A DNA stretch of 64,000 bases from Elusimicrobia bacterium HGW-Elusimicrobia-1 (GCA_002841695.1 PHAN01000003.1:164849-228848), one strand, 5' to 3'; shown: positions 1,529 through 42,383, counted from the stretch's first letter. Program-made: numbers and translations. Notes: generated by a model from the sequence alone, not told the origin.

Positions 1529-1846
1529 ATGACCACCCAACCCGTCGCGCCCCGTCTTGCCGACCTCGTAGAATATCAGTCAAACGCCGTCGTCAGTAAA
1601 ACGTTAATCGAAAAGAAAACCGGCACGGTAACGCTTTTCGCCTTCGACAAAGGTCAGGGCTTGAGCGAACACACAGCGCCCTTCGATGCAATGGTCTGCG
1701 TGCTCGACGGAGCCGTCGAAATAACCATCTCCGGCAAACCCATCACCGTCAAGCAGGGCGAAATGATAATCATGCCCGCCAACGAATCGCACGCGCTAAA
1801 AGGCGTCGAACGATTTAAGATGATGTTGACGATGATAAGGTCGTAA
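1529..1846 (+). CDS. cupin-domain protein
   Basis: Small beta-barrel cupin_2-like sequence (GxxxH ... 'GEMIIMPANESHAL'). RBS 'aaaggag' lies 8 nt before the ATG at 1529; the track's alternative start is 1505. Confidence 0.5.
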   Translation: MTTQPVAPRLADLVEYQSNAVVSKTLIEKKTGTVTLFAFDKGQGLSEHTAPFDAMVCVLDGAVEITISGKPITVKQGEMIIMPANESHALKGVERFKMMLTMIRS

Positions 1847-1851
1847 AAATG

Positions 1852-1857
1852 TATACT
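1852..1857 (+). promoter_or_regulatory. extended -10 promoter element TGTATACT (copy 1 of recurring 'AAAATGTATACT' motif)
   Basis: TGnTATACT lies 37 nt upstream of the ATG at 1894. The same motif recurs at 4651-4663, 7912-7924 and, as TGTATAAT, at 42010-42018. Confidence 0.45.
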
Positions 1858-1893
1858 GCTGGAGTATCGCTGATACCATAAAAGAGGGACAGC

Positions 1894-3435
1894 ATGAGAG
1901 CGTTAAAGCTTTCAACGATAAACAGCTGTAAGCCCGGGCAATTGCGTTGCCGCGGGCTTTTTTATTTTGCGTCCGCGGCGTTTTTATCATCGATAATGAT
2001 TTTGTTTTTCTCCGATATACTTCTTGCAAAAACCTTCATCAGGGAACACTATTACCGCGCCGGGAAAAACGACACCGAAATCACTTCCCGGGCGATAGCG
2101 CTGCATCAGGTAAAGGCGCGGCTGCTCGAAGAAATCGGGACTTACATGGAAAGCACGTTTGAGAGCACGGAGCAGGAGGGCGGCGGTCTCGGCGGACAAT
2201 TCACGAAATATCAGATAGTAAGCATCACAGCGGGAATCACGGAGACAAAGATACTGGAAGAGCGGTGGGACGGTAAAATATATTATATAAAGGCCGAGAT
2301 AGACGTGGATATTGATGATACACGCCGTAAAATTCGGGAGATATCGCAGGATAGGGAACGGATGCGGGAAATAGAGGCGATAAACAGAAAAGCCGATGAG
2401 GCGCTAAGGCAGATAGAGATGCTGACAAAGTCAAAAAAAAGCATTCCGATAGAATACACCGGCAGCCATATTATGAAAGTGGATGGCCGCAAAGTAGTTA
2501 TCGGACTGGGCTTGCTCAACGGTGTCAGAAAAAGCCAACAATTCAAAATTATAAAATCCGACAGCAAGGTTAATCCGCGCACAGGTGTAATAGTACACAA
2601 AGAAACAGCCGTTATCGGGGCGCTTAAAGTTATAAATACCGACGAGTGGACTTCTGATTGCGTGGTGATTTCCGGCGCCGGACGTATAAAACCGGGTGAT
2701 TTGATCAGTCCTCGCGCAGAAAAGGGTATTATGGAAATTGAGGGCGCGCTGTCCAGAGCCGAACCGCTGGACGAATTTAAATTCCGCTTCAACTGGAAGT
2801 TTCCGTATTTATTCAGGATGGATTTGGGTTATCTCAGGCCGTATTTTATGGAAAGTTTCGGCGAGGCAGCATATTTGAATTTTTCTTTTGACTGGCCATG
2901 GTTTGAAATCGGCCCCGGTTTTGCGGGATTCTTTCGGTACGGTGTTCCGCTTTTCGGCGGAGCGTCGATTGTTATGAGGGTGGGCCCGTATGAAGGCCCG
3001 ATAAATATTATTTTGCGGCATAACGGTGGAAAATTTATAGGCGCCGATCCAAATCAAAGGATAAACGGATTGATAGAGACAAATTGGCGGATTTCCGGCC
3101 GTGTTTTGCTTTATGGCAGAATGCATCAATATAAAGGGTCGTGGCAGGCCGGTGAATTTTATCACGATGACAAAGGTTATCAATATAATACAAGAACTTA
3201 CGGTGGGGCGGAAATAGGTTCGGGGGATTTAAGCTTTTTTGTCCAATATGGAGATGTTTTTGAGTATTGCGCGCTCGGAAAAGACCCCCGAGTTGAGCGG
3301 AGAGGAGAATACGGTGGCGCCGGAATCAAGTTGAATATGACTCCGTTGAGATACACTTTTTCCGCCGAGGGGATAAGGGCGCTGGGCGACGACAGAAGTT
3401 TGATTTTGCGTCTGGGCATAGGTTATGAGTTTTAG
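1894..3435 (+). CDS. secreted coiled-coil / outer-membrane beta-barrel protein, paralog 1
   Basis: N-terminal signal peptide (RCRGLFYFASAAFLSSIMILFFSDILLA), a charged coiled-coil segment, then a Gly/Tyr-rich alternating-hydrophobic C-terminus ending '...LRLGIGYEF', an OMP C-terminal strand signature. The first ~170 aa are near-identical to ORF 4704..5777. Confidence 0.6.
   Translation: MRALKLSTINSCKPGQLRCRGLFYFASAAFLSSIMILFFSDILLAKTFIREHYYRAGKNDTEITSRAIALHQVKARLLEEIGTYMESTFESTEQEGGGLGGQFTKYQIVSITAGITETKILEERWDGKIYYIKAEIDVDIDDTRRKIREISQDRERMREIEAINRKADEALRQIEMLTKSKKSIPIEYTGSHIMKVDGRKVVIGLGLLNGVRKSQQFKIIKSDSKVNPRTGVIVHKETAVIGALKVINTDEWTSDCVVISGAGRIKPGDLISPRAEKGIMEIEGALSRAEPLDEFKFRFNWKFPYLFRMDLGYLRPYFMESFGEAAYLNFSFDWPWFEIGPGFAGFFRYGVPLFGGASIVMRVGPYEGPINIILRHNGGKFIGADPNQRINGLIETNWRISGRVLLYGRMHQYKGSWQAGEFYHDDKGYQYNTRTYGGAEIGSGDLSFFVQYGDVFEYCALGKDPRVERRGEYGGAGIKLNMTPLRYTFSAEGIRALGDDRSLILRLGIGYEF
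1930..1968 (+). terminator. intrinsic-terminator-like hairpin + T-tract embedded in codons 13-25 of paralog 1
   Basis: AAGCCCGGGCAA-TTGCG-TTGCCGCGGGCTT followed by TTTTTTATTTT. The stem is conserved, with compensatory changes, in copies at 4740-4778, 8002-8040 and 14690-14727. Confidence 0.4.
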
Positions 3436-3588
3436 GCGCCGCCGGTCCGACGCTCATTCGGGTCATTGATATTGCGTCGGGCGATAGACTCGCCGGCGCT
3501 TAAGCGGGGATAATATTTCCCCCTTGACATTCACCATAAAATATGGTATATGTAACATAAATTATGGTGAATCGTCCGGAGGCGAAAT

Positions 3589-3918
3589 ATGCTTGAATCC
3601 ATCCTCGGCAACAAGACGGTCGAAAAAATACTCCTTTATCTTGAGCGCTATGGGCAGGGTTATCCGCAAAGCATCGCGCAACTGTTCGGCGTCAGCTTAA
3701 ACGGCATTCAACAGCAGTTAAAACGCCTGGAAAACGGCGGCGTCATTTCGAGTAATCGTTACGGGAAACTGCGTCTGTACACATTTAATCCACGGTACTA
3801 CTTTTTGCCGGAGTTGCGCGCTATACTCAAAAAAGCCCTCGATGCTTTGCCCGAAGCGGAGATAAAAAAATACTACATGCTTCGCACCCGCCCGCGCAGG
3901 AGCGGTAAACCTTTGTGA
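3589..3918 (+). CDS. winged-helix DNA-binding protein (putative regulator/antitoxin)
   Basis: 'KTVEKILLYLERYGQGYPQSIAQLFGVSLNGIQQQLKRLENGGVI' is a wHTH (ArsR/MarR-like) pattern. Its stop overlaps the start of the next gene (GTGA). Confidence 0.5.
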   Translation: MLESILGNKTVEKILLYLERYGQGYPQSIAQLFGVSLNGIQQQLKRLENGGVISSNRYGKLRLYTFNPRYYFLPELRAILKKALDALPEAEIKKYYMLRTRPRRSGKPL

Positions 3919-4466
3919 AAAAATCCATCGGGAAAGAAAACATCAAAGAACTCGCCGCACATGTATGCGGGGGGTTGAATAAAGAAGGAATCGACGCCGT
4001 TCTCGTCGGCGGCGCGTGTGTGTCGATTTATACGCAAAACGAGTATGAATCGTCCGATCTGGATTTTGTCGCCGAAGCCGAGTTGAAGAAAATGGACGCG
4101 GCCCTTGCCGGCATGGGATTTTCAAGGCCAAAGGGGGAGAGGCATTACAAGCGTCCCGGCGGATATTACTTTATCGAGTTTGTCGCTGCGCCGGTGGCCG
4201 TTGGCCGTGAAATAGTCAAAAGTTTAAAAAAACTCAAGACGAGATTCGGCGTCATAAAAATGTTGTCTCCGACGGACAGCGTGAAAGACCGCCTCGCCGC
4301 GTTTTTTCATTGGAATGATCATCAATCACTCGAACAGGCGATTATGATAACCAAAAAGAACCGAGTCGACCTTAAAGAAATCGGCGCGTGGGCGAAAAGA
4401 GAAGGCAAAAGCGGCGAGCTTAAAATCTTTTTTGATAAGTCGAAACGAGCCAAGGCAAGGGCTTGA
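3915..4466 (+). CDS. nucleotidyltransferase-fold protein
   Basis: 'LVGGACVSIYTQNEYESSDLDFV' fits the minimal NTase signature hG[GS]x9-13Dh[DE]h. GTG start is translationally coupled to the upstream wHTH gene. Confidence 0.45.
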   Translation: MKKSIGKENIKELAAHVCGGLNKEGIDAVLVGGACVSIYTQNEYESSDLDFVAEAELKKMDAALAGMGFSRPKGERHYKRPGGYYFIEFVAAPVAVGREIVKSLKKLKTRFGVIKMLSPTDSVKDRLAAFFHWNDHQSLEQAIMITKKNRVDLKEIGAWAKREGKSGELKIFFDKSKRAKARA

Positions 4467-4528
4467 CCGGACGACATATTAGAATCGGTGGATTTTTCGA
4501 TAAACCGCAATCATTTCCCGGGTTTCAA

Positions 4529-4597
4529 GTGGTTTTCGTATGAATTTTGTATGGATTACTCGTGGTTTTCGTGTGGTCTTCGTGTGGTATTTTATAG
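4529..4597. repeat. phased 11-bp repeats (GTGGTTTTCGT-like) upstream of paralog-2 promoter
   Basis: gtggttttcgt at 4529, then gtggttttcgt, gtggtcttcgt and gtggtatttta in perfect 11-bp register at 4562-4594. Confidence 0.6.
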
Positions 4598-4634
4598 TTG
4601 ATTCCGGGCGGATTAAGCCGTGTTTAGCATTGAT

Positions 4635-4663
4635 TTGAATCCACCCGTCCGAAAATGTATACT
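4635..4663 (+). promoter_or_regulatory. sigma70-type promoter TTGAAT-17-TGn-TATACT for paralog 2
   Basis: -35 ttgaat at 4635-4640, a 17-nt spacer ending in TG, and -10 tatact at 4658-4663. The ATG at 4704 follows an RBS-like 'agaggggt'. Confidence 0.55.
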
Positions 4664-4703
4664 CTGAAAAGATGAAACAGAAACAGTAACACAGAGGGGT
4701 AAA

Positions 4704-5777
4704 ATGAGAGCATCAAAGCTTTCAACGGCAAATAATCGGCAGCCCGGGCGTTTACTGCGCCGCGGGCTTTTTTATTTTGCGCCCGCGGCGTTTTTATCGT
4801 CGATGATGATTCTGTTTTTCTCCCAAGCGCTTCTTGCAAAAACATTTATAAGGGAACACTATTATCGCGCCGGCAAGCAGGATACCCAATTGACCGCCCG
4901 GGCAATTGCATTGCATCAGGTTAAGTCGCGTCTGATCGAGGAGGTCGGCACTTATATAGAAAGCGCATTTGAAAGCACGGAACGAGAAAGCAAAGCCGGG
5001 AGCGAACAATTCACGAAGCATCAGATAGTAAGCATAACCGCGGGAATCACGGAAACAAAGATACTGGAAGAGAAATGGGACGGTAAGACCTATTACATAA
5101 AAGCAGAAATTGAAGTCGACGTCGACGACACGAAGCGGCGGATAACGGAGATATCCGGCGACAGAAGCAAGATGAGAGAGATAGAAGAGATAAACCGAAA
5201 GGCCGACGATGCTTTGCGGGAAATAGAAGCGCTCAAAAAATCAAGCGGCTTACCGAAACGCGGCGGCGGTGCGTTTTATGTCGGATTGGATCTGCCCGGT
5301 ACATTCAAGGAAAACTACAGTATCGGCACATACAGCGGTGAACGACCCGTCGATTCCGGAGCCGGGGTTGCAATCGGATGGGAATACGAGGGACGCGGCG
5401 TTCCCTTGGGACTTGGTTTCGGAGCTTTTTACCAGTTGCCGAGGACGCTGACTTTTAGCGGCTCGGCTACTATCGGTTTTTCGCCGCTATATCTCCTGGG
5501 GCATTATTATGTAAACGACTTCACTTATATCATAGGTCGATTGGGATACAGTATGTATTACAGTAAAAATTTCACCACATACGCGAGCTACGCGGGCGGG
5601 TTGTATTATGCCTTCGGGCTGGGAATAAAAACGCAGGGATTCACTCTTTCCGGGGTTTACAGCGTCAATAAAAGCGAGGGCTCGGGGTTTAGCGATGTGT
5701 GGCTTTTGCCCCGCGGACCCATTTCAGGGACATTAACATACTCTCAGATTTCCATTCTCTTTAAATTATATATCTGA
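4704..5777 (+). CDS. secreted coiled-coil / outer-membrane beta-barrel protein, paralog 2
   Basis: The N-terminal ~170 aa are highly similar to paralog 1 ('MRASKLST...RRGLFYFAPAAFLSSMMILFF...KTFIREHYYRAGK...'). The C-terminus is a different Gly/Tyr-rich beta-strand region. Confidence 0.6.
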   Translation: MRASKLSTANNRQPGRLLRRGLFYFAPAAFLSSMMILFFSQALLAKTFIREHYYRAGKQDTQLTARAIALHQVKSRLIEEVGTYIESAFESTERESKAGSEQFTKHQIVSITAGITETKILEEKWDGKTYYIKAEIEVDVDDTKRRITEISGDRSKMREIEEINRKADDALREIEALKKSSGLPKRGGGAFYVGLDLPGTFKENYSIGTYSGERPVDSGAGVAIGWEYEGRGVPLGLGFGAFYQLPRTLTFSGSATIGFSPLYLLGHYYVNDFTYIIGRLGYSMYYSKNFTTYASYAGGLYYAFGLGIKTQGFTLSGVYSVNKSEGSGFSDVWLLPRGPISGTLTYSQISILFKLYI

Positions 5778-5877
5778 AATCAACACACCCCGACGGAAAC
5801 GACCCGCGTTATTGCCGCACGACACTTGTTGACGATATAAAACACTCGCCGTCCTTGAGTAGGCACAAAGAACAAAG

Positions 5878-6585
5878 ATGATATCATTCATCGTCCCCGC
5901 CCACAATGAAGAGCGATTGCTTCCCGCCACGCTTCAAGCGATTGGCGAAGCGGCCAAGTCCGTTGGCGAACCGTACGAAGTCATCGTAGTTGACGACGCT
6001 TCGACGGACGCCACGTCCGATGTCGCCCGCAAGTGCGGCGCGAAGGTCGTCCGCATAGAGCGACGTCAAATCGCCTCGGCCCGCAACGCGGGAGCGCGCG
6101 AATCATCGGGCGAACGGCTCTTTTTCGTCGACGCCGACACCCTCATAACCTCCGATGTCCTTGGCGCCGCCATGCGCGCGATGGATTCCGGCGCCGTCGG
6201 CGGCGGCGCGACGGCCCGAATGGACGGCCGCCTGCCTCTTTACGCCCGCGCGATGCTTTCCGCGAGCATGCCGCTTTTCAGGATGCTGCGACTTGCTCCG
6301 GGATGTTTCGTGTTTTGCACCCGCAGGGCCTTCGAGGCGTCCGGCGGCTTCGACGAGCGCTACTACGCCGCCGAAGACATCGTCGTCAGTAACGCCCTCA
6401 AGCGCCAAGGCCGTTTCGTGATTTTGCGCGAGCATGTCGTCACGTCCGGAAGAAAAGCCCGCGCCAACAACTTATTCGACCTGTCGCGCCTGCTCGTCCG
6501 TCTGCTTCGTTATGGTCTCAAGTCCCGCAAGGCGCTCGGCTTCTGGTACGAAAAAAGGACGGATGATACGGAATTGCGCGGGTGA
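5878..6585 (+). CDS. family 2 glycosyltransferase
   Basis: 'ISFIVPAHNEERLL...VIVVDDASTDAT' is the GT2 N-terminal signature, with a DxD-like 'FVDADT'. Confidence 0.7.
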   Translation: MISFIVPAHNEERLLPATLQAIGEAAKSVGEPYEVIVVDDASTDATSDVARKCGAKVVRIERRQIASARNAGARESSGERLFFVDADTLITSDVLGAAMRAMDSGAVGGGATARMDGRLPLYARAMLSASMPLFRMLRLAPGCFVFCTRRAFEASGGFDERYYAAEDIVVSNALKRQGRFVILREHVVTSGRKARANNLFDLSRLLVRLLRYGLKSRKALGFWYEKRTDDTELRG

Positions 6586-6786
6586 ATCTTGGATGCCGCC
6601 TGCGCCGAAAGATGCCGTGCTCTGAATCAGTGTGATGGTTGAGCCCCGCGCCGACGATATGCTATACTGGCCGCAAAGCGTTACTAAGGAAAAATCGCTC
6701 CGAGCCCCGAATCGTTTGGCGATGTACAAATCTAATAGAACCGCGCGGCAGAGCGTGACGTCCGTTGCGGCAAGGAGGATACGCAA

Positions 6787-7245
6787 ATGAAAGTTCCGGA
6801 ATACATCACAAAGGAAGAAGTCCGTCGCGTCTGTCGGGAACTGGGCATCCGGGACTGGTCTATTCTGAAGGAACCCGTCATTCCTGCGAAGGAAGCGGAA
6901 GCGGTTCTTCGCGCACTCGATGTTCCTTCGATGAATGTCGATCTTTCCGTCTTCAAATCGGGTCTTGAAGTCGAGTTGGAGCATGGCACTCGCTATCCCG
7001 AGGCCAATGTCACGAACAACCACCCCATCATCACGGGCCGAATCGTCGTTGCTCATCTGAAAGAGTCGATGGACTACTACCTCAGACTTGCCGTTGCGGA
7101 GGCGGAGGGCGATTTGCTTTCCGCGATTCTTTCCGGAGACGGCAAACGCGCGGCACGAAAGCTCCGTGCCCTCGCCGAAGCTCGCGCCGAAGTAGCCCGC
7201 GCTGAGCAAACGCAGTTGGAAAATATAACCAAACCGGAGAATTAA
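6787..7245 (+). CDS. hypothetical protein
   Basis: Strong RBS 'aaggagg' 6 nt upstream. Preferred over the 306-aa antisense ORF 6472..7392. Confidence 0.45.
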   Translation: MKVPEYITKEEVRRVCRELGIRDWSILKEPVIPAKEAEAVLRALDVPSMNVDLSVFKSGLEVELEHGTRYPEANVTNNHPIITGRIVVAHLKESMDYYLRLAVAEAEGDLLSAILSGDGKRAARKLRALAEARAEVARAEQTQLENITKPEN

Positions 7246-7255
7246 GGAGAGACCG

Positions 7256-7657
7256 ATGAAAACAAGAATGGGTTTGTGGATTGACCACAGAAAAGCCGTC
7301 ATCGTGGCCGTTACGGACAAAGGGGAAGACACAATACTGATATTGTCGAAAGTGGAAAAGCATCTCCAGCGTTCCGGCGATTCGTCCCGCAAAGGTTATG
7401 CATCGCGGCAGGCGCCCGCGTCCGATAGTCGCCAGAGAATGTTTACAGGGCATATCAACGTTTACTACGATGCTATAATTGCGTGTCTTCGCGCCGCGGA
7501 ATCCATTCTGATATTTGGTCCCGGCGAGGCAAAAGGCGAACTGAAAAAACGTCTTATAAAAAGTAAACTGGGCGGACGCATCGCAGGGGTTGAAGCAGTC
7601 GGCAATATGACGGATAACCAGATTGTGGCTAAGGTTCGCCGGCGCTTCGCTAAGTAG
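7256..7657 (+). CDS. hypothetical protein
   Basis: RBS 'aaggagag' 7 nt upstream; sits 11 nt after the previous gene. Confidence 0.45.
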   Translation: MKTRMGLWIDHRKAVIVAVTDKGEDTILILSKVEKHLQRSGDSSRKGYASRQAPASDSRQRMFTGHINVYYDAIIACLRAAESILIFGPGEAKGELKKRLIKSKLGGRIAGVEAVGNMTDNQIVAKVRRRFAK

Positions 7658-7770
7658 CGTTTGGCAATGTGGGTCGAGGCGGAATCATCCCGGGAAGTCG
7701 GATTGGTGAGAAGATAGGCCGCTAAAAATCGCGAAGTTTTTATGTAAACGATAAATACCCCGAATTTCGC

Positions 7771-7870
7771 GTGGTTTTTTAGTGGTTTTCGAGTGGTTGC
7801 CCCAGTGGTTTTCGTGTGGTTTTTGTGTGGCGTTCGGGTGGTGATTTATAGTGGATTTGGGGTGGTTTTG
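7771..7870. repeat. array of ~9 phased GTGG(T)TTT-N repeats (period 11-13 bp) upstream of the copy-3 promoter
   Basis: gtggtttttta / gtggttttcga / gtggttgcccca / gtggttttcgt / gtggtttttgt / gtggcgttcgg / gtggtgatttata / gtggatttgggg / tggttttg. Confidence 0.6.
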
Positions 7871-7895
7871 AAGCTAAAAAATAGCTAAGAATGGC

Positions 7896-7924
7896 TTGAA
7901 TTACGGTCACTGAAAATGTATACT
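7896..7924 (+). promoter_or_regulatory. sigma70-type promoter TTGAAT-17-TGn-TATACT (copy 3)
   Basis: ttgaat at 7896-7901, 17-nt spacer, tatact at 7919-7924. Same architecture as 4635-4663. Confidence 0.55.
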
Positions 7925-7965
7925 CTGAAAAGATAAAGCAATAAAATATCACAGCGGGGTCCGAT

Positions 7966-8043
7966 GAGAGCATCAAAGCTTTCAACGGGGGGAATTGTAA
8001 TCGCCCGGGCGTCTATTGGCGCCTCGGGCTTTTTTATTTTATG
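7966..8043 (+). pseudogene. truncated third copy of the paralog leader (26 codons), ends ATGA-overlapping the HNH gene
   Basis: 'MRASKLSTGGIVIARASIGASGFFIL*' aligns to paralogs 1 and 2 through the hairpin/T-tract (8002-8040). Similarity stops exactly after 'ttttttatttt' at 8040, where 'atgattaaaccc' begins. Confidence 0.55.
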
Positions 8044-8736
8044 ATTAAACCCGGCGATGTAATTTCTTATCAAACTATGTGTCAGGAAGAAAAATTTAGT
8101 TTACAAAAAGGTATGAATTATCACCTCGCACCTGGCTATAGTGTCATTTTGATGAGCACACAAACTGGTGCGCCATATTCAGATCGCGTCGAGGGTAATG
8201 GTAAAACGCTTATTTATGAGGGGCATGACATCCCTAAAACCAAAGGGGTCGATGATCCGAAAAAATATGATCAGCCTATGAAAAATCCAAGCGGGTCATT
8301 GACGCAAAATGGAATGTTTTTTAAGGCGGCTGGCGAGTATAAAAAGAACGCCAAAAGTCCAGAACTCGTTAAGGTTTATGAAAAAATCAGGCCTGGTATT
8401 TGGGCATACAATGGATTGTTTGAGCTTCAAGATGCTTGGATGGAAAGTGATGGCCGCCGTGACGTGTTTAAGTTTAAATTGGCAATCACGGACGAATCAC
8501 TAAGTGAAAAGAATGCTGAGCAGTCAGATATTGATCATACTCGTATAATTCCGTCGGAAGTCAAGCGTATAGTTTGGGCACGTGATAAGGGTAAGTGTGT
8601 CGAGTGTGGTGCGGTCGATAATCTTCATTTTGACCATATTATTCCTTACAGTAAAGGTGGCTCTTCGCGCGACGCAGAAAATATCCAACTTCTTTGCGCG
8701 AGACATAATTTGGCAAAGAGGGATAGGATTGGATAA
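8041..8736 (+). CDS. SRA-like domain + HNH endonuclease (putative modification-dependent type IV restriction nuclease)
   Basis: C-terminal HNH ('CVECGAVDNLHFDHIIPYSKGG...NIQLLCARHN'). The N-terminus 'GDVISYQTM...HLAPGYSVILMS...LIYEGHD...DQ...N' resembles the SRA/YDG base-flipping pattern (G.H..GI...A.SIVLSG...YTGSGG). Confidence 0.55.
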   Translation: MIKPGDVISYQTMCQEEKFSLQKGMNYHLAPGYSVILMSTQTGAPYSDRVEGNGKTLIYEGHDIPKTKGVDDPKKYDQPMKNPSGSLTQNGMFFKAAGEYKKNAKSPELVKVYEKIRPGIWAYNGLFELQDAWMESDGRRDVFKFKLAITDESLSEKNAEQSDIDHTRIIPSEVKRIVWARDKGKCVECGAVDNLHFDHIIPYSKGGSSRDAENIQLLCARHNLAKRDRIG

Positions 8737-14579: not shown

Positions 14580-14608
14580 TTGACACGCCCCGACCAGATT
14601 TGTAGAAT
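14580..14608 (+). promoter_or_regulatory. sigma70 promoter TTGACA-17-TGn-TAGAAT
   Basis: ttgaca at 14580-14585, 17-nt spacer, tgtagaat at 14601-14608. It drives a ~110-nt unit ending at the 14690-14727 terminator. Confidence 0.5.
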
Positions 14609-14689
14609 TATCTCGTATGAAGTAAATGGTCATGCGGGGGTTGGATGAAAGTTTGTATGCTTTCGGGGAAAAACGGTTCAAAAAAATGA

Positions 14690-14727
14690 CAGCCCGTGCG
14701 GCTTTCTGCCGCCGCGGGCTTTTTTGG
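14690..14727 (+). terminator. rho-independent terminator (4th copy of the leader hairpin family)
   Basis: AGCCCGTGCGGC-TTTCT-GCCGCCGCGGGCT followed by TTTTTT. Sequence-similar to the hairpins at 4740-4778 and 8002-8040. Confidence 0.6.
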
Positions 14728-14827
14728 TTTACGGTTGAACCATGATTGGTTGGAGTATTGCACGGAAAGTAGCAGTTCGTCTTTGCTGCTTACGCGGATA
14801 GTATAGTATTTGTGTGGTGGTAATGGA

Positions 14828-15289
14828 ATGATAACAGCAGAATCAAAATTACGCGTTGCTGTAAAAACCCTTCAGAGTGCTAGAAAAAAACTCCACGCCG
14901 ATTTCCCAGAATGGAATTTCACTCTCGACGGCAAGCTTATTGGTGACATTGGCGAAGCATACGCAAAAGCACATTTTAGCCTTGTAAAAATAGATAGTAA
15001 TAGTAAAGCTCACGACTTTAAGGCGCCCGACGGACGTCTTGTACAGGTCAAAATTACCCAAAAAAAGACATTGGGACTGGGGATCTCTGCTCCTACCTTC
15101 GACTATTTTATAGCTCTTTGCTTGAGTGAAAATGGAGATTTCCAAGTCGTTTACAATGGCAAAGGTTCTAGAGTGTATAAGCGTAAAGGGCACCCCCCGA
15201 AAAAATCCATTTCTGTAATAAAACTGAAAGAATTAAATAAGCAGGTGGATAAATCGGAAACAATTCCCAGTAAGCAGAACACCAAATAA
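14828..15289 (+). CDS. small PD-(D/E)xK-like nuclease-fold protein (cargo gene A)
   Basis: 'GDIGEAYAKAHF' is a helix with a conserved Glu; 'AHDFKAPDGRLVQVKI' gives D...QVK, a PD-(D/E/Q)xK-like arrangement. Alternative start at 14810. Confidence 0.3.
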   Translation: MITAESKLRVAVKTLQSARKKLHADFPEWNFTLDGKLIGDIGEAYAKAHFSLVKIDSNSKAHDFKAPDGRLVQVKITQKKTLGLGISAPTFDYFIALCLSENGDFQVVYNGKGSRVYKRKGHPPKKSISVIKLKELNKQVDKSETIPSKQNTK

Positions 15290-19946: not shown

Positions 19947-21197
19947 TTGAGGGGGTATATTATGAGATTATTCAAAAAATGTTCTCATTGCCGGAGCCAG
20001 TTCGCGGCGACGAAGATAACCGCTGCCGCCGAAGCGGCCAAATGCCCCAAGTGCGGGGCGTCTCTTCGCGGTGCCCAGTGGTATATCGACTACTACGTGG
20101 GCTACGAGCGTAAGAGAGAGGCCGTCGGCACACAAAAGCGTTTCGCCGAGGAAGTCATAGCCAAGCGCCGCATCGAGATAAAAGAGGGGAAGTTCTTTGA
20201 CAGAAAAAAAGAGAGCGTGCACAGATTAAAAGAAATCCTCGACGACTTTCTGGCGTATTCCAAAACCAACAAGAAATCCTATGAGCGCGACATCGGACTC
20301 GTCAAGCAGCTTCTGACTTACTTCGACGGCTCCAAGCGCCTTGAGGCGGTAACGCCGATCCTCATCGAACAATACAAAGGCAAACGCCTCAACGCCGACG
20401 GAAGAAAGCCCGCGACGGTAAACCGCGAACTCGCCTGCCTCAAGTGCGCTTTCAACTGGGCGATAAAAAACGCCAAGGCGTCGGCGAACCCCGTGCGAAG
20501 CGTCAAACTCTTGAAAGAAAACAATATGCGCTTGCGCTATCTCTCGCAAGAAGAAATCGGACGGCTTCTTAACGCCTGTCCGACGACGATAAGGCGCATC
20601 GTGACCGCCGCGCTTCACACCGGAATGCGCCTGGGGGAAATACTTCCTCTCAAATGGGAAGACATTGATTTCGCTCAGAATATCATCATCCTCAAAAATA
20701 CCAAAAGCGGCCGGATGAGAGAAATCCCGATAAACGGGGTTTTGCGCAAAACGCTCAATGAGTGCCGCAAAAACACGGATGAAGTCCACGTCTTCTGCAA
20801 CGAATCGGGCGTGCCTTATCGCAGTATCAATAGCATGTTCCAGCGCATAATCAAGAAAGCGGGCATTGCCGATTTCCGGTTCCACGATTTGCGCCATACG
20901 GCGGCATCATACATGGTCATGTTGGGCATACAACTTGCCACCGTAAGGGAGATTTTGGGCCATCAGAGCATCAATATGACGCTCAGGTATGCCCACCTGT
21001 CTCAGGAGCACAAACTCACGGCAATGGAGATGTTGGGGACGCGACTCGACACCCTTTCGACACCCCGACCCCCCGATGGCCAAAACACCCGAAAAGAGGG
21101 TGATGAGAAAAGTATTGATATTTCAGCATTTTTGAGTAATCTGGAGAGGTCGCCTAGTGGTTTAGGGCGGCGGTTTGCTAAACCGCTGTCCCGCTAA
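19947..21197 (+). CDS. int: tyrosine recombinase (phage-type integrase), C-terminal tail reads into tRNA-Ser
   Basis: Catalytic-domain motifs 'RLGEILPLKWEDIDF', 'HDLRHTAASYMVMLG' and 'LGHQSINMTLRYAHL'. N-terminal zinc ribbon (CSHCRS...CPKCG). The last ~18 codons (stop at 21195-21197) are tRNA sequence. Confidence 0.8.
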   Translation: MRGYIMRLFKKCSHCRSQFAATKITAAAEAAKCPKCGASLRGAQWYIDYYVGYERKREAVGTQKRFAEEVIAKRRIEIKEGKFFDRKKESVHRLKEILDDFLAYSKTNKKSYERDIGLVKQLLTYFDGSKRLEAVTPILIEQYKGKRLNADGRKPATVNRELACLKCAFNWAIKNAKASANPVRSVKLLKENNMRLRYLSQEEIGRLLNACPTTIRRIVTAALHTGMRLGEILPLKWEDIDFAQNIIILKNTKSGRMREIPINGVLRKTLNECRKNTDEVHVFCNESGVPYRSINSMFQRIIKKAGIADFRFHDLRHTAASYMVMLGIQLATVREILGHQSINMTLRYAHLSQEHKLTAMEMLGTRLDTLSTPRPPDGQNTRKEGDEKSIDISAFLSNLERSPSGLGRRFAKPLSR

Positions 21198-40697: not shown

Positions 40698-41920
40698 TGC
40701 CATCCTGCCCCTGCCCGTTTCTGCAATCCCTTTTTGCCGAGTGCCCCGGGTTTTTTGTTTCAAAAGCCCGCAACCTCGCAAAATGTATCTTTTGTAAGTA
40801 CGTGTTGCGCGTCTCCATAAGTCCCCCTGTGTCCCCCTTTATTAAAGGGGGACACAGGGGGATTTTTTGTCACCCCGTCACTTTTTCACTGTTTTTTTCT
40901 TTTTCTATTTTCTATTTTCTATTTAGCACTCACGCTCTTTTCGCCGCATCTCCGCCGTCGTCGCACAAGATAATATGGGGCGACACTCTTGCCGCGATAT
41001 CCGCCCGCCATTACGGCTCGGCGCGGTTCTATCCGGCCATAGCCGCCGCCAATAAAATATCCAACCCTCATTTGATAATCGTCGGAGGTATTTTGATACT
41101 TCCGGACATTTCCGAGTTGGAAGCGGTCGCTGCCGCCGCCTCGCCCCCTGACATTACCCCGCCGATACCAATTGTTCAAGTCGCTCCGTGTACGCCAGAT
41201 GCCGTCGTTGTTTCGTCGGAGACGCCGAGCGCTTTTATCTGGCGCAAAGTCGACAATTCGGCTTTTGCCGTCGGCGAACATTTGACTTTTGAAATCAAGT
41301 GGCAGTTTATCACGGCGGGAATTGCCGTTATGAATGTAGACCGGATTGTTCCTGCGCCATCCGCTCCCGAACGGCTGTCTTACAAAATAGTCACCGAAGC
41401 CCGCTCCACGCCCTTTATCGACGGATTCTTTAAAGTCCGCGACACCAACATATCCTATATCGACGTGGAAAGTATTTGTTCGCACTCTATAGAATCCGAT
41501 ATCTCCGAGGGCAATTTCCGCAAAAAAGAACAAATAATATTCGATCAGGCAAATAACGCTTTTGCCCTCTCCGACGGCAGAACCGGCCCGACCGGACCAT
41601 GGGTGCAGGACGTTTTGAGCGCCCTTTACTATGTCCGGCTGCTTCCTCTTGAGCCCGGCGCGCAGTTTTCTTTTCCCGCCCATTCCGGAGATACGACATA
41701 TCCATTGTCCGTCAGAGTACTGGGCAGAGAGAAGGTTCGCGTTCCGGCCGGCGAGTTTGACTGTTTTAAGCTTGAACCGGCGTTGAGGGGAGACGGCGTG
41801 TTTAAGGCGAAAGGCCGGCTTTGGGTGTGGGTTACAGCCGACGCAAGACGAATGCCCGTCCTTATGAAGTCGCAGGTTTTCATCGGCTCTGTCGACGCGG
41901 TGCTTAGGGAATACAGATAA
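40670..41920 (+). CDS. LysM-domain secreted protein with DUF3108-like C-terminal region; start uncertain
   Basis: LysM: 'HKIIWGDTLAAISARHYGSARFYPAIAAANKISNPHLIIVGGILILP'. A hydrophobic signal-like segment precedes it. No ATG/GTG/TTG lies in frame between the hairpin and the LysM domain; the only canonical starts are at 40670 or GTG/TTG at 40794/40797. Confidence 0.5.
   Translation: MDNRSNDTMMPSCPCPFLQSLFAECPGFFVSKARNLAKCIFCKYVLRVSISPPVSPFIKGGHRGIFCHPVTFSLFFSFSIFYFLFSTHALFAASPPSSHKIIWGDTLAAISARHYGSARFYPAIAAANKISNPHLIIVGGILILPDISELEAVAAAASPPDITPPIPIVQVAPCTPDAVVVSSETPSAFIWRKVDNSAFAVGEHLTFEIKWQFITAGIAVMNVDRIVPAPSAPERLSYKIVTEARSTPFIDGFFKVRDTNISYIDVESICSHSIESDISEGNFRKKEQIIFDQANNAFALSDGRTGPTGPWVQDVLSALYYVRLLPLEPGAQFSFPAHSGDTTYPLSVRVLGREKVRVPAGEFDCFKLEPALRGDGVFKAKGRLWVWVTADARRMPVLMKSQVFIGSVDAVLREYR
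40823..40868 (+). terminator. perfect 18-bp palindrome hairpin + T-tract (terminator-like)
   Basis: ccccctgtgtcccccttt-att-aaagggggacacaggggg, followed by attttttg. Confidence 0.5.
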
Positions 41921-41922
41921 AG

Positions 41923-41991
41923 CAGTGGATAGTGGTTAGTGGCGAGTAAAAGCAAAAAGTTTTTCTAACCACTAACCACTAACCACTTTTT
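41923..41991 (+). terminator. hairpin built from CCACTAACCACT repeats + T-tract
   Basis: agtggttagtgg ... ccactaaccactaaccact followed by ttttt. Confidence 0.45.
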
Positions 41992-42018
41992 GTTACAGTT
42001 CCGTCAAAAATGTATAAT
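41990..42018 (+). promoter_or_regulatory. sigma70 promoter TTGTTA-17-TGn-TATAAT
   Basis: ttgtta at 41990-41995, 17-nt spacer, tgtataat at 42011-42018. Confidence 0.5.
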
Positions 42019-42137: not shown

Positions 42138-42383
42138 ATGAATACTGCTAAACTAACCGTTACTATTCCTTGTGATAAATATGAGAGGATAGAAAAAGAG
42201 AAAAAGCAAAAGGGTCTTAATAGAAGCGCTTTTGTTAATCTGATGATATCCTTTTTTTTCCAGGAAGAAGATGAGGCGGAGAAGGTTAAGAGATATATAT
42301 CCGGCTATAAGAAAAAACCCGAGGACATAAAGAAAATAGCCGCCTTTGAAAATATCCAGTCAAAATCATTGGGGGAATTTTAG
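42138..42383 (+). CDS. mazE: ribbon-helix-helix antitoxin (MazE/CopG-like)
   Basis: 'KLTVTIPCDKYERIEKEKKQKGLNRSAFVNLMI' has the RHH beta-strand and helices. RBS 'ggagg'. Confidence 0.6.
   Translation: MNTAKLTVTIPCDKYERIEKEKKQKGLNRSAFVNLMISFFFQEEDEAEKVKRYISGYKKKPEDIKKIAAFENIQSKSLGEF

Follow-up and report, generated by a model that had tools for sequence, protein, structure and literature searches.

The closest described counterparts of the element examined here are the pyrBI and pyrE operons of Escherichia coli, in which an intrinsic terminator lies near the promoter and is either crossed by the leader's open reading frame (ORF; pyrL of pyrBI) or situated just behind its end (rph-pyrE). In both, a ribosome that blocks the 5′ arm of the terminator allows read-through, and no alternative RNA fold is needed. 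Short promoter-proximal terminated transcripts that gate downstream genes are also a classic design of mobile elements, known from PR′-tR′ of phage lambda. Premature 3′ ends mapped by Term-seq in E. coli (Adams et al., 2021; PMC7815308) and Mycobacterium tuberculosis (D'Halluin et al., 10.1101/2022.06.01.494293) likewise lie just behind or inside translated starts, are linked to upstream ORFs (uORFs) and stop/start overlaps, and leave short RNAs as by-products. In this study, a stretch of 64,000 nucleotides from the uncultured Elusimicrobia bacterium HGW-Elusimicrobia-1 (GCA_002841695.1, PHAN01000003.1:164849-228848; in the following called the window, with positions counted from its first letter) was analyzed together with its flanks, 83 kb in total. 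Four related units, c1, c2, c3 and t4, are located on one strand (+) within 13 kb of it. Their predicted layout comprises a sigma-70-like promoter, a 5′ untranslated region (UTR) of 30-40 nt, a G-rich Shine-Dalgarno (SD) sequence, a 7-bp hairpin at the AUG (hairpin 1), a variable spacer and a canonical intrinsic terminator. We propose, with an estimated probability of about one half, that these units are promoter-proximal premature-termination gates whose read-through is most likely controlled by the ribosome, as in pyrBI/pyrE.

An earlier note on this DNA had listed three loci with a common leader coding start, and this start was recovered: the 24-nt pattern ATGAGAGC[AG]T[CT]AAAGCTTTCAACG is found at exactly three sites (1894, 4704 and 7964), with a shuffle expectation of 0. 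The first two of the ATG positions claimed at that time hold, while the third, given as 7966, is located at 7964. Further words common to the three units are AAAATGTATACT (1846, 4652 and 7913) and CGGGCTTTTTTATTTT (1953, 4763 and 8025). In the alignment, the similarity common to c1, c2 and c3 begins at the −10 box and reaches as far as the final T of the T-tract; past this point c3 is unrelated and the similarity of c1 and c2 goes on. The promoter proposed for all three loci, with TTGAAT and a 17-nt spacer, applies to c2 (4635-4663) and c3 (7896-7924), both of which read TTGAAT-17-TATACT, but not to c1. The promoter region of the latter (1826-1857) consists of TTGACG (1826-1831), a 20-nt spacer and AAAATG-TATACT with the −10 hexamer at 1852-1857, and it overlaps the stop codon of the preceding cupin gene. 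A canonical extended −10 element (TGnTATAAT) is not present at these sites, as the TG directly adjoins the hexamer, and a promoter scan left it unflagged. Downstream follow the SD and hairpin 1, which in c1 span 1884-1914 (GAGGG at 1884-1888, AUG at 1894, hairpin 1 at 1895-1914) and in c2 4694-4724 (GAGGGG at 4694-4699, AUG at 4704, hairpin 1 at 4705-4724). In c3, the SD GGGG (7956-7959) precedes a leader ORF at 7964-8044 with hairpin 1 at 7965-7984.

Each of the c1-c3 leaders folds into two hairpins, namely the AUG hairpin and a bulged GC hairpin followed by U6AU4, with whole-leader z-scores against shuffles of −4.1 (c1), −2.8 (c2) and −4.2 (c3). Hairpin 1 has 7 bp (UGAGAGC-N6-GCUUUCA) and takes in the U and G of the AUG. 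Neither this hairpin nor t4 and the genomic island is mentioned in the earlier note. For the GC hairpin, a folding free energy (dG) of −17 to −22 kcal/mol was calculated. Its stem comprises 11-13 bp with one bulge in the four units and is followed by U6AU4 (c1-c3) or U6GGUUU (t4), so that all four contain a GC-rich stem-loop directly before a U-tract, the sequence signature of an intrinsic terminator. They also rank among the best compact sites of hairpin plus T-run in the 83 kb. Folding therefore bore out the previously noticed resemblance to a terminator, which sits at +38 to +75 of the ORF. The same is true for the proposed compensatory changes, since two stem pairs differ on both sides between c1 and c2/c3 and are still paired. 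In c1 the terminator-like hairpin (1931-1968) has its stem at 1932-1957 with one bulged G and its U6AU4 at 1958-1968, within codons 13-25. The corresponding hairpin of c2 (4741-4778) has its stem at 4742-4767 and U6AU4 at 4768-4778, and in c3 the stem (8003-8029) and U6AU4 (8030-8040) lie inside the leader ORF. A tandem duplication of 22 nt, which takes in the 3′ arm and T-run, is confined to c1 and c2 and allows a second hairpin to form (dG −18 to −22), followed by a UUUUUAU of its own. In c1 this second, overlapping hairpin (1949-1987) is formed by the terminator 3′ arm and GUCCGCGGCG, and in c2 the duplication spans 4756-4797 with a dG of −21.9 for the second hairpin. The duplication falls in signal-peptide codons with 80-100% third-position identity between c1 and c2. 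Judged from the sequence, it may represent a tandem terminator, and we offer no more specific explanation.

A blastn search with the module against the 83 kb yielded a match at 14672-14741 that led to the complete but diverged fourth unit, t4 (14580-14725). This unit stands alone and has kept every element, by one-sided as well as two-sided substitutions that preserve pairing. It consists of the promoter TTGACA-17-TAGAAT (14580-14608), an SD (GGGGG, 14636-14640) with a 14-codon uORF (14645-14689; start ATGAAAG, stop at 14687-14689) that contains hairpin 1 (14646-14665, GAAAGU/GCUUUC), and the terminator (14691-14725), whose hairpin at 14691-14720 starts 1 nt past the uORF stop and is followed by U6. 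Aligned element by element, t4 shows the same order as c1-c3 and about 68% column identity with them. A composite pattern matches exactly four sites, c1-c3 and t4, versus 0 expected, and a covariance model built from the four units scores them at 84-100 bits, with nothing else in the window or its flanks above 17 bits and the next best hit at 16 bits. In the four-sequence alignment, 96% of the pair cells hold standard pairs. Two terminator pairs have changed on both sides, one of which appears as A-U, U-G and G-C, and four further pairs show one-sided changes with at most one unpaired cell each. The observed pairing score was reached by 7 of 500 column shuffles, and sliding the 3′ partners by 1-3 columns reduced pairing to 35-54%. 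Stem covariation across all copies, which the note had suggested to test, is thus visible in paired substitutions that include t4; coming from four sequences of one genome, it can be regarded as supportive, not conclusive.

The arrangement of reading frame and terminator is shared as well. A G-rich SD precedes the AUG by 4-5 nt in each of the four units, and the ORF starting at hairpin 1 crosses the terminator in c1-c3 and ends 1 nt short of the stem in t4. On the sequence level, a leader ORF with its own SD that overlaps or abuts the terminator, as in pyrBI/pyrE, is hence found in four out of four units. In c1 and c2 the leader ORF runs on in frame into a protein. That of c3 has 26 codons, and its stop codon TGA (8042-8044) shares bases with the start codon of the following gene (ATG at 8041; overlap ATGA), which encodes an SRA-HNH nuclease (8041-8736) and has no SD of its own, with only the U-tract upstream. 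No start farther upstream than this ATG is possible for the gene, and the match to the SRA domain begins at residue 20. Because the leader stop overlaps a start codon that lacks an SD, the sequence implies translational coupling of SRA-HNH to the leader. Behind t4 lies a DUF6998 gene (14828-15289) with a match to mREase_II (methyl-directed restriction enzyme) of PADLOC. The possibility that c3 and t4 are broken paralogues of c1 and c2 was rejected, since tblastn found downstream of them no remnant of a gene for the N-terminal domain (N-domain) that the c1 and c2 proteins share.

As the leader ORF of c1 and c2 is fused in frame to the structural gene, the terminator would code for the start of the signal peptide in these two units. 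The 3′ arm CGC CGC GGG and the U-tract CUU UUU UAU UUU can be read as RRG-LFYF; the resulting R-R/C-R-G-L-F-Y-F would provide the n-region and the first hydrophobic residues of a 45-amino-acid (aa) signal peptide. It is in the nature of a GC stem with a U-run behind it to encode first charged and then hydrophobic residues, and the fusion of a leader to a signal peptide may be explained by this. The former suggestion that a module supplies variable cassettes with promoter and signal peptide stands with respect to the promoter. It fails with respect to the signal peptide: since c3 and t4 have no hydrophobic core and precede cytoplasmic nuclease genes, the unit donates promoter, leader and terminator, and its portable part ends at the T-tract. 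The family is uncatalogued and better described as promoter-leader-terminator units, four in number and carried by a mobile island, than as a signal-peptide donor.

From this anatomy we infer that termination takes place at the U-tract, affects part of the transcripts and is relieved by translation. The majority of transcripts would stop at the U-tract and leave a by-product RNA of ~100-110 nt, and read-through transcripts alone would express the gene behind. Because canonical terminators precede these genes, their expression would require read-through. The genes gated in this way would be those of two secreted Lpp20-like/outer-membrane (OM) proteins, an SRA-HNH nuclease operon and the DUF6998 methyl-directed nuclease. 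A ribosome keeping pace with RNA polymerase would cover the 5′ arm of the terminator; it is implicated by the conserved SD and AUG and by the ORF-terminator geometry. In E. coli, the ribosome almost completely suppresses a terminator that lies a few bp past a stop codon, while one located 30 bp past the AUG loses only ~10% of its efficiency to translation, unless a pyrBI-like pause couples ribosome and polymerase (PMC4824070; PMC5021804). From this, the gates are presumed to be efficient, with a small and possibly regulated fraction of transcripts passing, and hairpin 1 may, as a speculation, set translation initiation or pause the polymerase.

In several respects the units differ from the known systems. 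They do not contain the U-rich, nucleoside triphosphate (NTP)-sensitive pause region of pyrBI/pyrE, as the stretch from hairpin 1 to the terminator is variable, rich in A/G and without a U-run. In addition, the leader ORF of c1 and c2 is the N-terminus of the regulated protein instead of a separate peptide, and the units occur in several copies on a mobile island before genes that have no relation to nucleotide synthesis. Most of the premature 3′ ends known from Term-seq depend on Rho or are single-copy, in contrast to the canonical intrinsic terminator in a repeated unit seen here. If the units do terminate and translation relieves this termination, they would constitute a portable expression gate of ~140 bp which a mobile defence island has reused before unrelated genes. 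A single stretch would then act both as RNA terminator and as coding sequence, with the GC stem giving Arg/Gly/Pro/Ala and the U-tract Leu/Phe/Tyr, which results in a signal-peptide-like N-terminus. It would also represent an uncatalogued cis-regulatory RNA family from Elusimicrobia, a phylum in which, to our knowledge, there is almost no experimental RNA biology.

A number of observations weigh against such ribosome-controlled gates. Folding of the leader RNA with a view to alternative structures, as had been suggested, returned just the two hairpins, and neither consensus nor constrained folds contained a conserved antiterminator; in c1-c3 there is only weak pairing of 3-4 bp between the SD and the 5′ arm. 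An obvious element for pausing RNA polymerase is likewise absent from the leaders. By the kinetics of E. coli, it would be rare for a ribosome to catch up with the polymerase within 40 nt of the AUG, and for this reason the model would need a pause. Transcripts terminated in c1-c3 would furthermore be non-stop mRNAs, which would be costly if the leader is well translated. With just four copies from one genome, the covariation statistics are weak, and the likeness of c1-c3 could owe much to a recent duplication of one gene's 5′ end. Finally, exact and degenerate DNA patterns found no copy of the unit outside this genome in GTDB genomes, JGI metagenomes or IMG/VR. In sum, the attenuator-type control considered in the earlier note is partly supported, by the anatomy, by t4 and by an ORF reaching or crossing the terminator, and is weakened by the missing conserved antiterminator and by covariation drawn from four sequences.

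Alternatively, the units might be genes for sibling small RNAs (sRNAs) of ~100-110 nt that act in trans, their link to the downstream genes being incidental read-through or co-option as a 5′ end. Although we consider this unlikely, several features would fit: each unit is a complete promoter-to-terminator transcription unit, the similarity of c3 and t4 ends exactly at the T-tract with unrelated sequence beyond, and an A-rich 5′ region with terminal hairpin and U-tail resembles Hfq-type sRNAs. Attenuator-derived sRNAs are known (PMC6614838; PMC7815308). The strongest argument against trans-acting sRNAs is provided by the pattern of conservation. Over the four units the invariant columns are the SD, AUG, stems and U-tract, whereas the unpaired UTR and spacer, in which a target-binding seed would be expected to be single-stranded and conserved, vary most. 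An SD 4-5 nt before the AUG in every unit points to translation, and c1 and c2 must be read through to give a protein whose homologues all have signal peptides. Moreover, no Rfam family was matched, neither at the gathering threshold in the window nor at E<=5 in 1780-8100, and around t4 only noise was obtained (13 bits versus a gathering score of 60).

Next in order, and quite improbable in our view, is the absence of any regulatory role, with c1-c3 as leftovers from copying of the 5′ end of a single gene inside the island, the hairpin as an accident of a GC-rich signal region coding for Arg and Phe, and c3 as a truncated pseudogene. That c2 shares positions −250 to +77 with c3 and −15 to +570 with c1 would fit nested duplications of a c2-like ancestor, as would the location of all copies on one strand within 13 kb. 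A comparison of c1 and c2 by codon position speaks against such relics. In the mature domain (aa 46-180; 76% amino-acid identity) their third-position identity is 50%, but it amounts to 80% in codons 1-10 (hairpin 1) and to 80-100% in codons 21-40 (from the U-tract onward). These islands of identity are not accounted for by recent gene conversion, because divergence between c1 and c2 affects the 5′ UTRs but spares the hairpins. In codons 11-20, which form the upper terminator stem and loop, amino-acid identity drops to 40% and the base pairs are kept; as residues are swapped with pairing preserved, the constraint acts on RNA or DNA and not on the peptide. No gene remnants are located behind c3 or t4. 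The strongest objection is t4 itself, which is far more diverged and has no N-domain gene behind it, yet possesses a near-consensus promoter, an SD, both hairpins and a U-tract.

Slightly less likely again, and doubtful, is that the gates are opened not by the ribosome but by a dedicated antiterminator of the island or a phage, which would recognize hairpin 1 or its 6-N6-6 DNA inverted repeat and let RNA polymerase pass the four terminators simultaneously, in the manner of lambda N/nut or Q/tR′. The units resemble lambda PR′-tR′ in residing on a mobile element, in a short terminated transcript behind a strong promoter and in the potential to gate several operons at once. Here, an island with an integrase holds four operons under one leader, and promoter-proximal gating is familiar from such elements. 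The nearly invariant stem of hairpin 1 could be taken as a recognition site; its loop, however, is not conserved, unlike that of boxB. Among the island proteins scanned there is no recognizable gene of the Q, N, BglG/SacY or LoaP/RfaH type, and neither a Q/N-like gene nor a boxA/boxB signature was identified. Such a factor would also leave the conserved SD and AUG, which lambda PR′-tR′ does not share, and the exact ORF-terminator geometry unexplained. Least likely of all, the hairpins would mainly terminate the preceding co-directional genes, with the promoters of the next genes upstream of them by chance: no other canonical terminator lies between the stop codons of the upstream genes (1846, 4466, 7657 and 14544) and the hairpins of the units, but this neither explains the joint conservation of promoter, SD, AUG hairpin and terminator in order and spacing at four places nor removes the gating, as the transcripts of the unit itself would be stopped too.

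Some further candidates were considered and rejected. A riboswitch or other known RNA was discarded in view of the missing Rfam match, and the unconserved loops of hairpin 1 make an aptamer unlikely. The units do not correspond to leader attenuators of the trp/his type either, as they have no mutually exclusive antiterminator hairpin and their leader peptides do not contain common repeated codons. Inspection by eye also led us to drop an integron attC site, a resemblance of GCUUUCAAC to boxA, and the U-run as a −1 slippery site, due to poor fit or wrong frame.

The proteins behind c1 and c2 share their N-terminal part, and both are encoded on a 301.6-kb contig. Protein 1 (513 aa, PKN01882.1; 1894-3435) consists of the leader and long signal peptide (aa 1-45), an Lpp20-like N-domain (aa 46-~180) and an orphan C-terminal part of 329 aa ending in GIGYEF. 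Protein 2 (357 aa, PKN01885.1; 4704-5777) comprises leader and signal peptide, the Lpp20-like N-domain, a helical linker and a C-terminal part of ~170 aa. By inspection, the putative Sec signal starts with MRA..RR/RCR, continues with GLFYFA(P/S)AAFLSS(M/I)MILFFS and ends with LLA|KTF, its n-region of 20 aa being unusually long; in the AF2 (AlphaFold) model a helix spans aa 17-42. The claim that the leader continues as a signal peptide in both units is correct as to the frame, with the correction that c1 reads RCRGLFYF and not RRGLFYF. A Tat signal was rejected, since LRRGLF is present in c2 but c1 has RCRGLF. Public gene starts differ in the leader-terminator regions and because of them: protein 1 (1894/1996) is annotated with 513 aa by NCBI/ENA and 479 aa by JGI, and SRA-HNH (8041/8113) with 231 aa by JGI and 207 aa by NCBI/ENA. 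This split between gene callers is a warning for the annotation of such regions.

The part common to both proteins (aa 46-~185) is a member of a family with a wide distribution, which includes Elusimicrobiota, Bacteroidota, Ignavibacteria and Cloacimonetes, among others. Its relatives usually have an ordinary signal peptide of 19-27 aa ending just before KTF(I/L)RE and, unlike proteins 1 and 2, mostly continue with TPR repeats. None of them has the long leader, and no database protein shares words with leader and signal peptide. In the closest homologue (62% identity), which is from Elusimicrobiota, the signal peptide is of the ordinary kind and the upstream region shows no relation, and a search for related loci returned only relatives with 36-41% identity from other phyla, none with the unit. 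The suggested check for other genomes with different C-termini behind the same leader was accordingly negative in all genomes and proteins searched. AlphaFold predicts for aa 20-180, with a predicted local distance difference test (pLDDT) score of 80-96, a strand-helix-helix-strand-strand core followed by a long helical tail. The conserved N-terminal half described earlier as a coiled coil is therefore indeed shared, but as an alpha/beta domain with a helical tail (aa 46-180), the term coiled coil fitting the tail only. The best match of the model in the PDB is Lpp20 of Helicobacter pylori (HP1456), and it is weak (probability 1.0, E 5e-3, template modeling (TM) score 0.54 on target); on this basis the N-domain may be an Lpp20-like periplasmic domain akin to the LPP20-like lipoproteins.

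With regard to the C-termini, which had been described as beta-barrels, a barrel is supported only indirectly for protein 2 and is conceivable for protein 1. Distant homologues of the protein 2 C-terminus (E 1e-12 to 1e-8) are mostly stand-alone proteins of ~180-200 aa, several of which match PF13505 (OMP_b-brl). Proteins 1 and 2 themselves match no Pfam model, the C-terminus of protein 2 not even at E<=5, and its AF2 model is of low confidence. This part of protein 2 thus appears to be a remote relative of 8-stranded outer-membrane beta-barrels and not a demonstrated member of PF13505. For the 329 C-terminal aa of protein 1 no homologue except itself was found, and the idea of a barrel goes back to composition and the terminal GIGYEF as read by eye, the AF2 model being unusable (pLDDT 32). 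The different C-termini reflect ordinary domain shuffling behind a widespread N-domain.

All four units are located on an island of ~26 kb. Its right attachment (att) repeat is the 5′ half of tRNA-Ser(GCT) (21139-21183, +), an identical 45-nt copy of which is present at window positions −4787 to −4743 (L010:4631-4675). A tyrosine integrase gene (Phage_integrase, 19947-21197) and an HTH_17 gene adjoin the tRNA-Ser, so that both hallmarks of a tRNA-integrated island, a tRNA direct repeat at both ends and a tyrosine integrase, were found. The tRNA gene is entered by the integrase ORF, and its intact form is on the integrase side; by sequence, insertion appears to have affected the tRNA in its 5′ half or anticodon-loop region, in place of the 3′ end that is usually used. 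Restriction and defence genes are abundant on the island, whose cargo includes a DpnII restriction-modification (R-M) system, Mrr, a pair of winged-helix (wHTH) and nucleotidyltransferase genes, SRA-HNH, a DEDDh exonuclease, DUF6998, DUF1848 and an S8 protease. It is conceivable, though we consider it improbable, that one portable gate keeps potentially toxic cargo of the whole island near-silent and opens all of it on a single signal, the terminator having been exapted as the start of a signal peptide. The cargo of this regulon would be two envelope proteins and two methyl-directed nucleases, and the signal, for example the state of transcription-translation coupling or an island or phage factor, would arise for instance during phage attack. 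All recovered contigs were identical in sequence to the window and showed no strain variation.

Additional features of the island concern single genes. Between c1 and c2, two overlapping genes (3589-4466) encode a 109-aa winged-helix protein and a 183-aa DUF2204-like nucleotidyltransferase, which look like a toxin-antitoxin or defence pair. The GT2 glycosyltransferase gene at 5878-6585 has a GC content of 60-67% compared to about 47% in its neighbours and is probably a separate acquisition within the island. Just upstream of the DpnII operon (L001:2608-3064, window about −2690 to −2234) are ORFs for a 78-aa Cys-rich zinc-ribbon-like protein and a 48-aa Lys/Arg-rich one, both possible regulators.

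Upstream of their promoters, c2 and c3 have ~250 nt of sequence in common that carries GTGG(T)TTT repeats with an 11-nt period, about five copies at c2 (GTGGTTTTCGT, 4529-4588, +) and about nine at c3 (7765-7869, +). These GTGG(T)TTT(CG) repeats of helical period are placed 50-150 nt upstream of the promoters and are absent at c1 and t4; they could be phased T-tracts that give curved DNA, or an array of regulator sites. The promoter box was rejected as a feature specific to the units, as AAAATGTATA(C/A)T is also found before the DpnII operon (L001:3195) and a gene at 42007, for which reason the −10 context is probably the usual one of the organism. At the former site, the box GAAAATGTATACTCT (L001:3191-3209, window about −2106 to −2088) lies 25 nt upstream of the dam-like methyltransferase gene that opens the DpnII operon, and leader hairpins are absent there.

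With respect to other terminators of the region, a perfect 19-bp hairpin (UCCCCCUGUGUCCCCCUUU/AAAGGGGGACACAGGGGGA, dG −39) followed by T6 and a TTCTATTT-type repeat occurs at 40822-40868 and 40880-40930, the hairpin at 40822-40868 being far stronger than all others. Nearby (41927-42018), a GTGGTTA/TAACCAC inverted repeat is followed by AAAATGTATAAT, a near-copy of the −10 box of the units, upstream of a small gene that starts at 42139.

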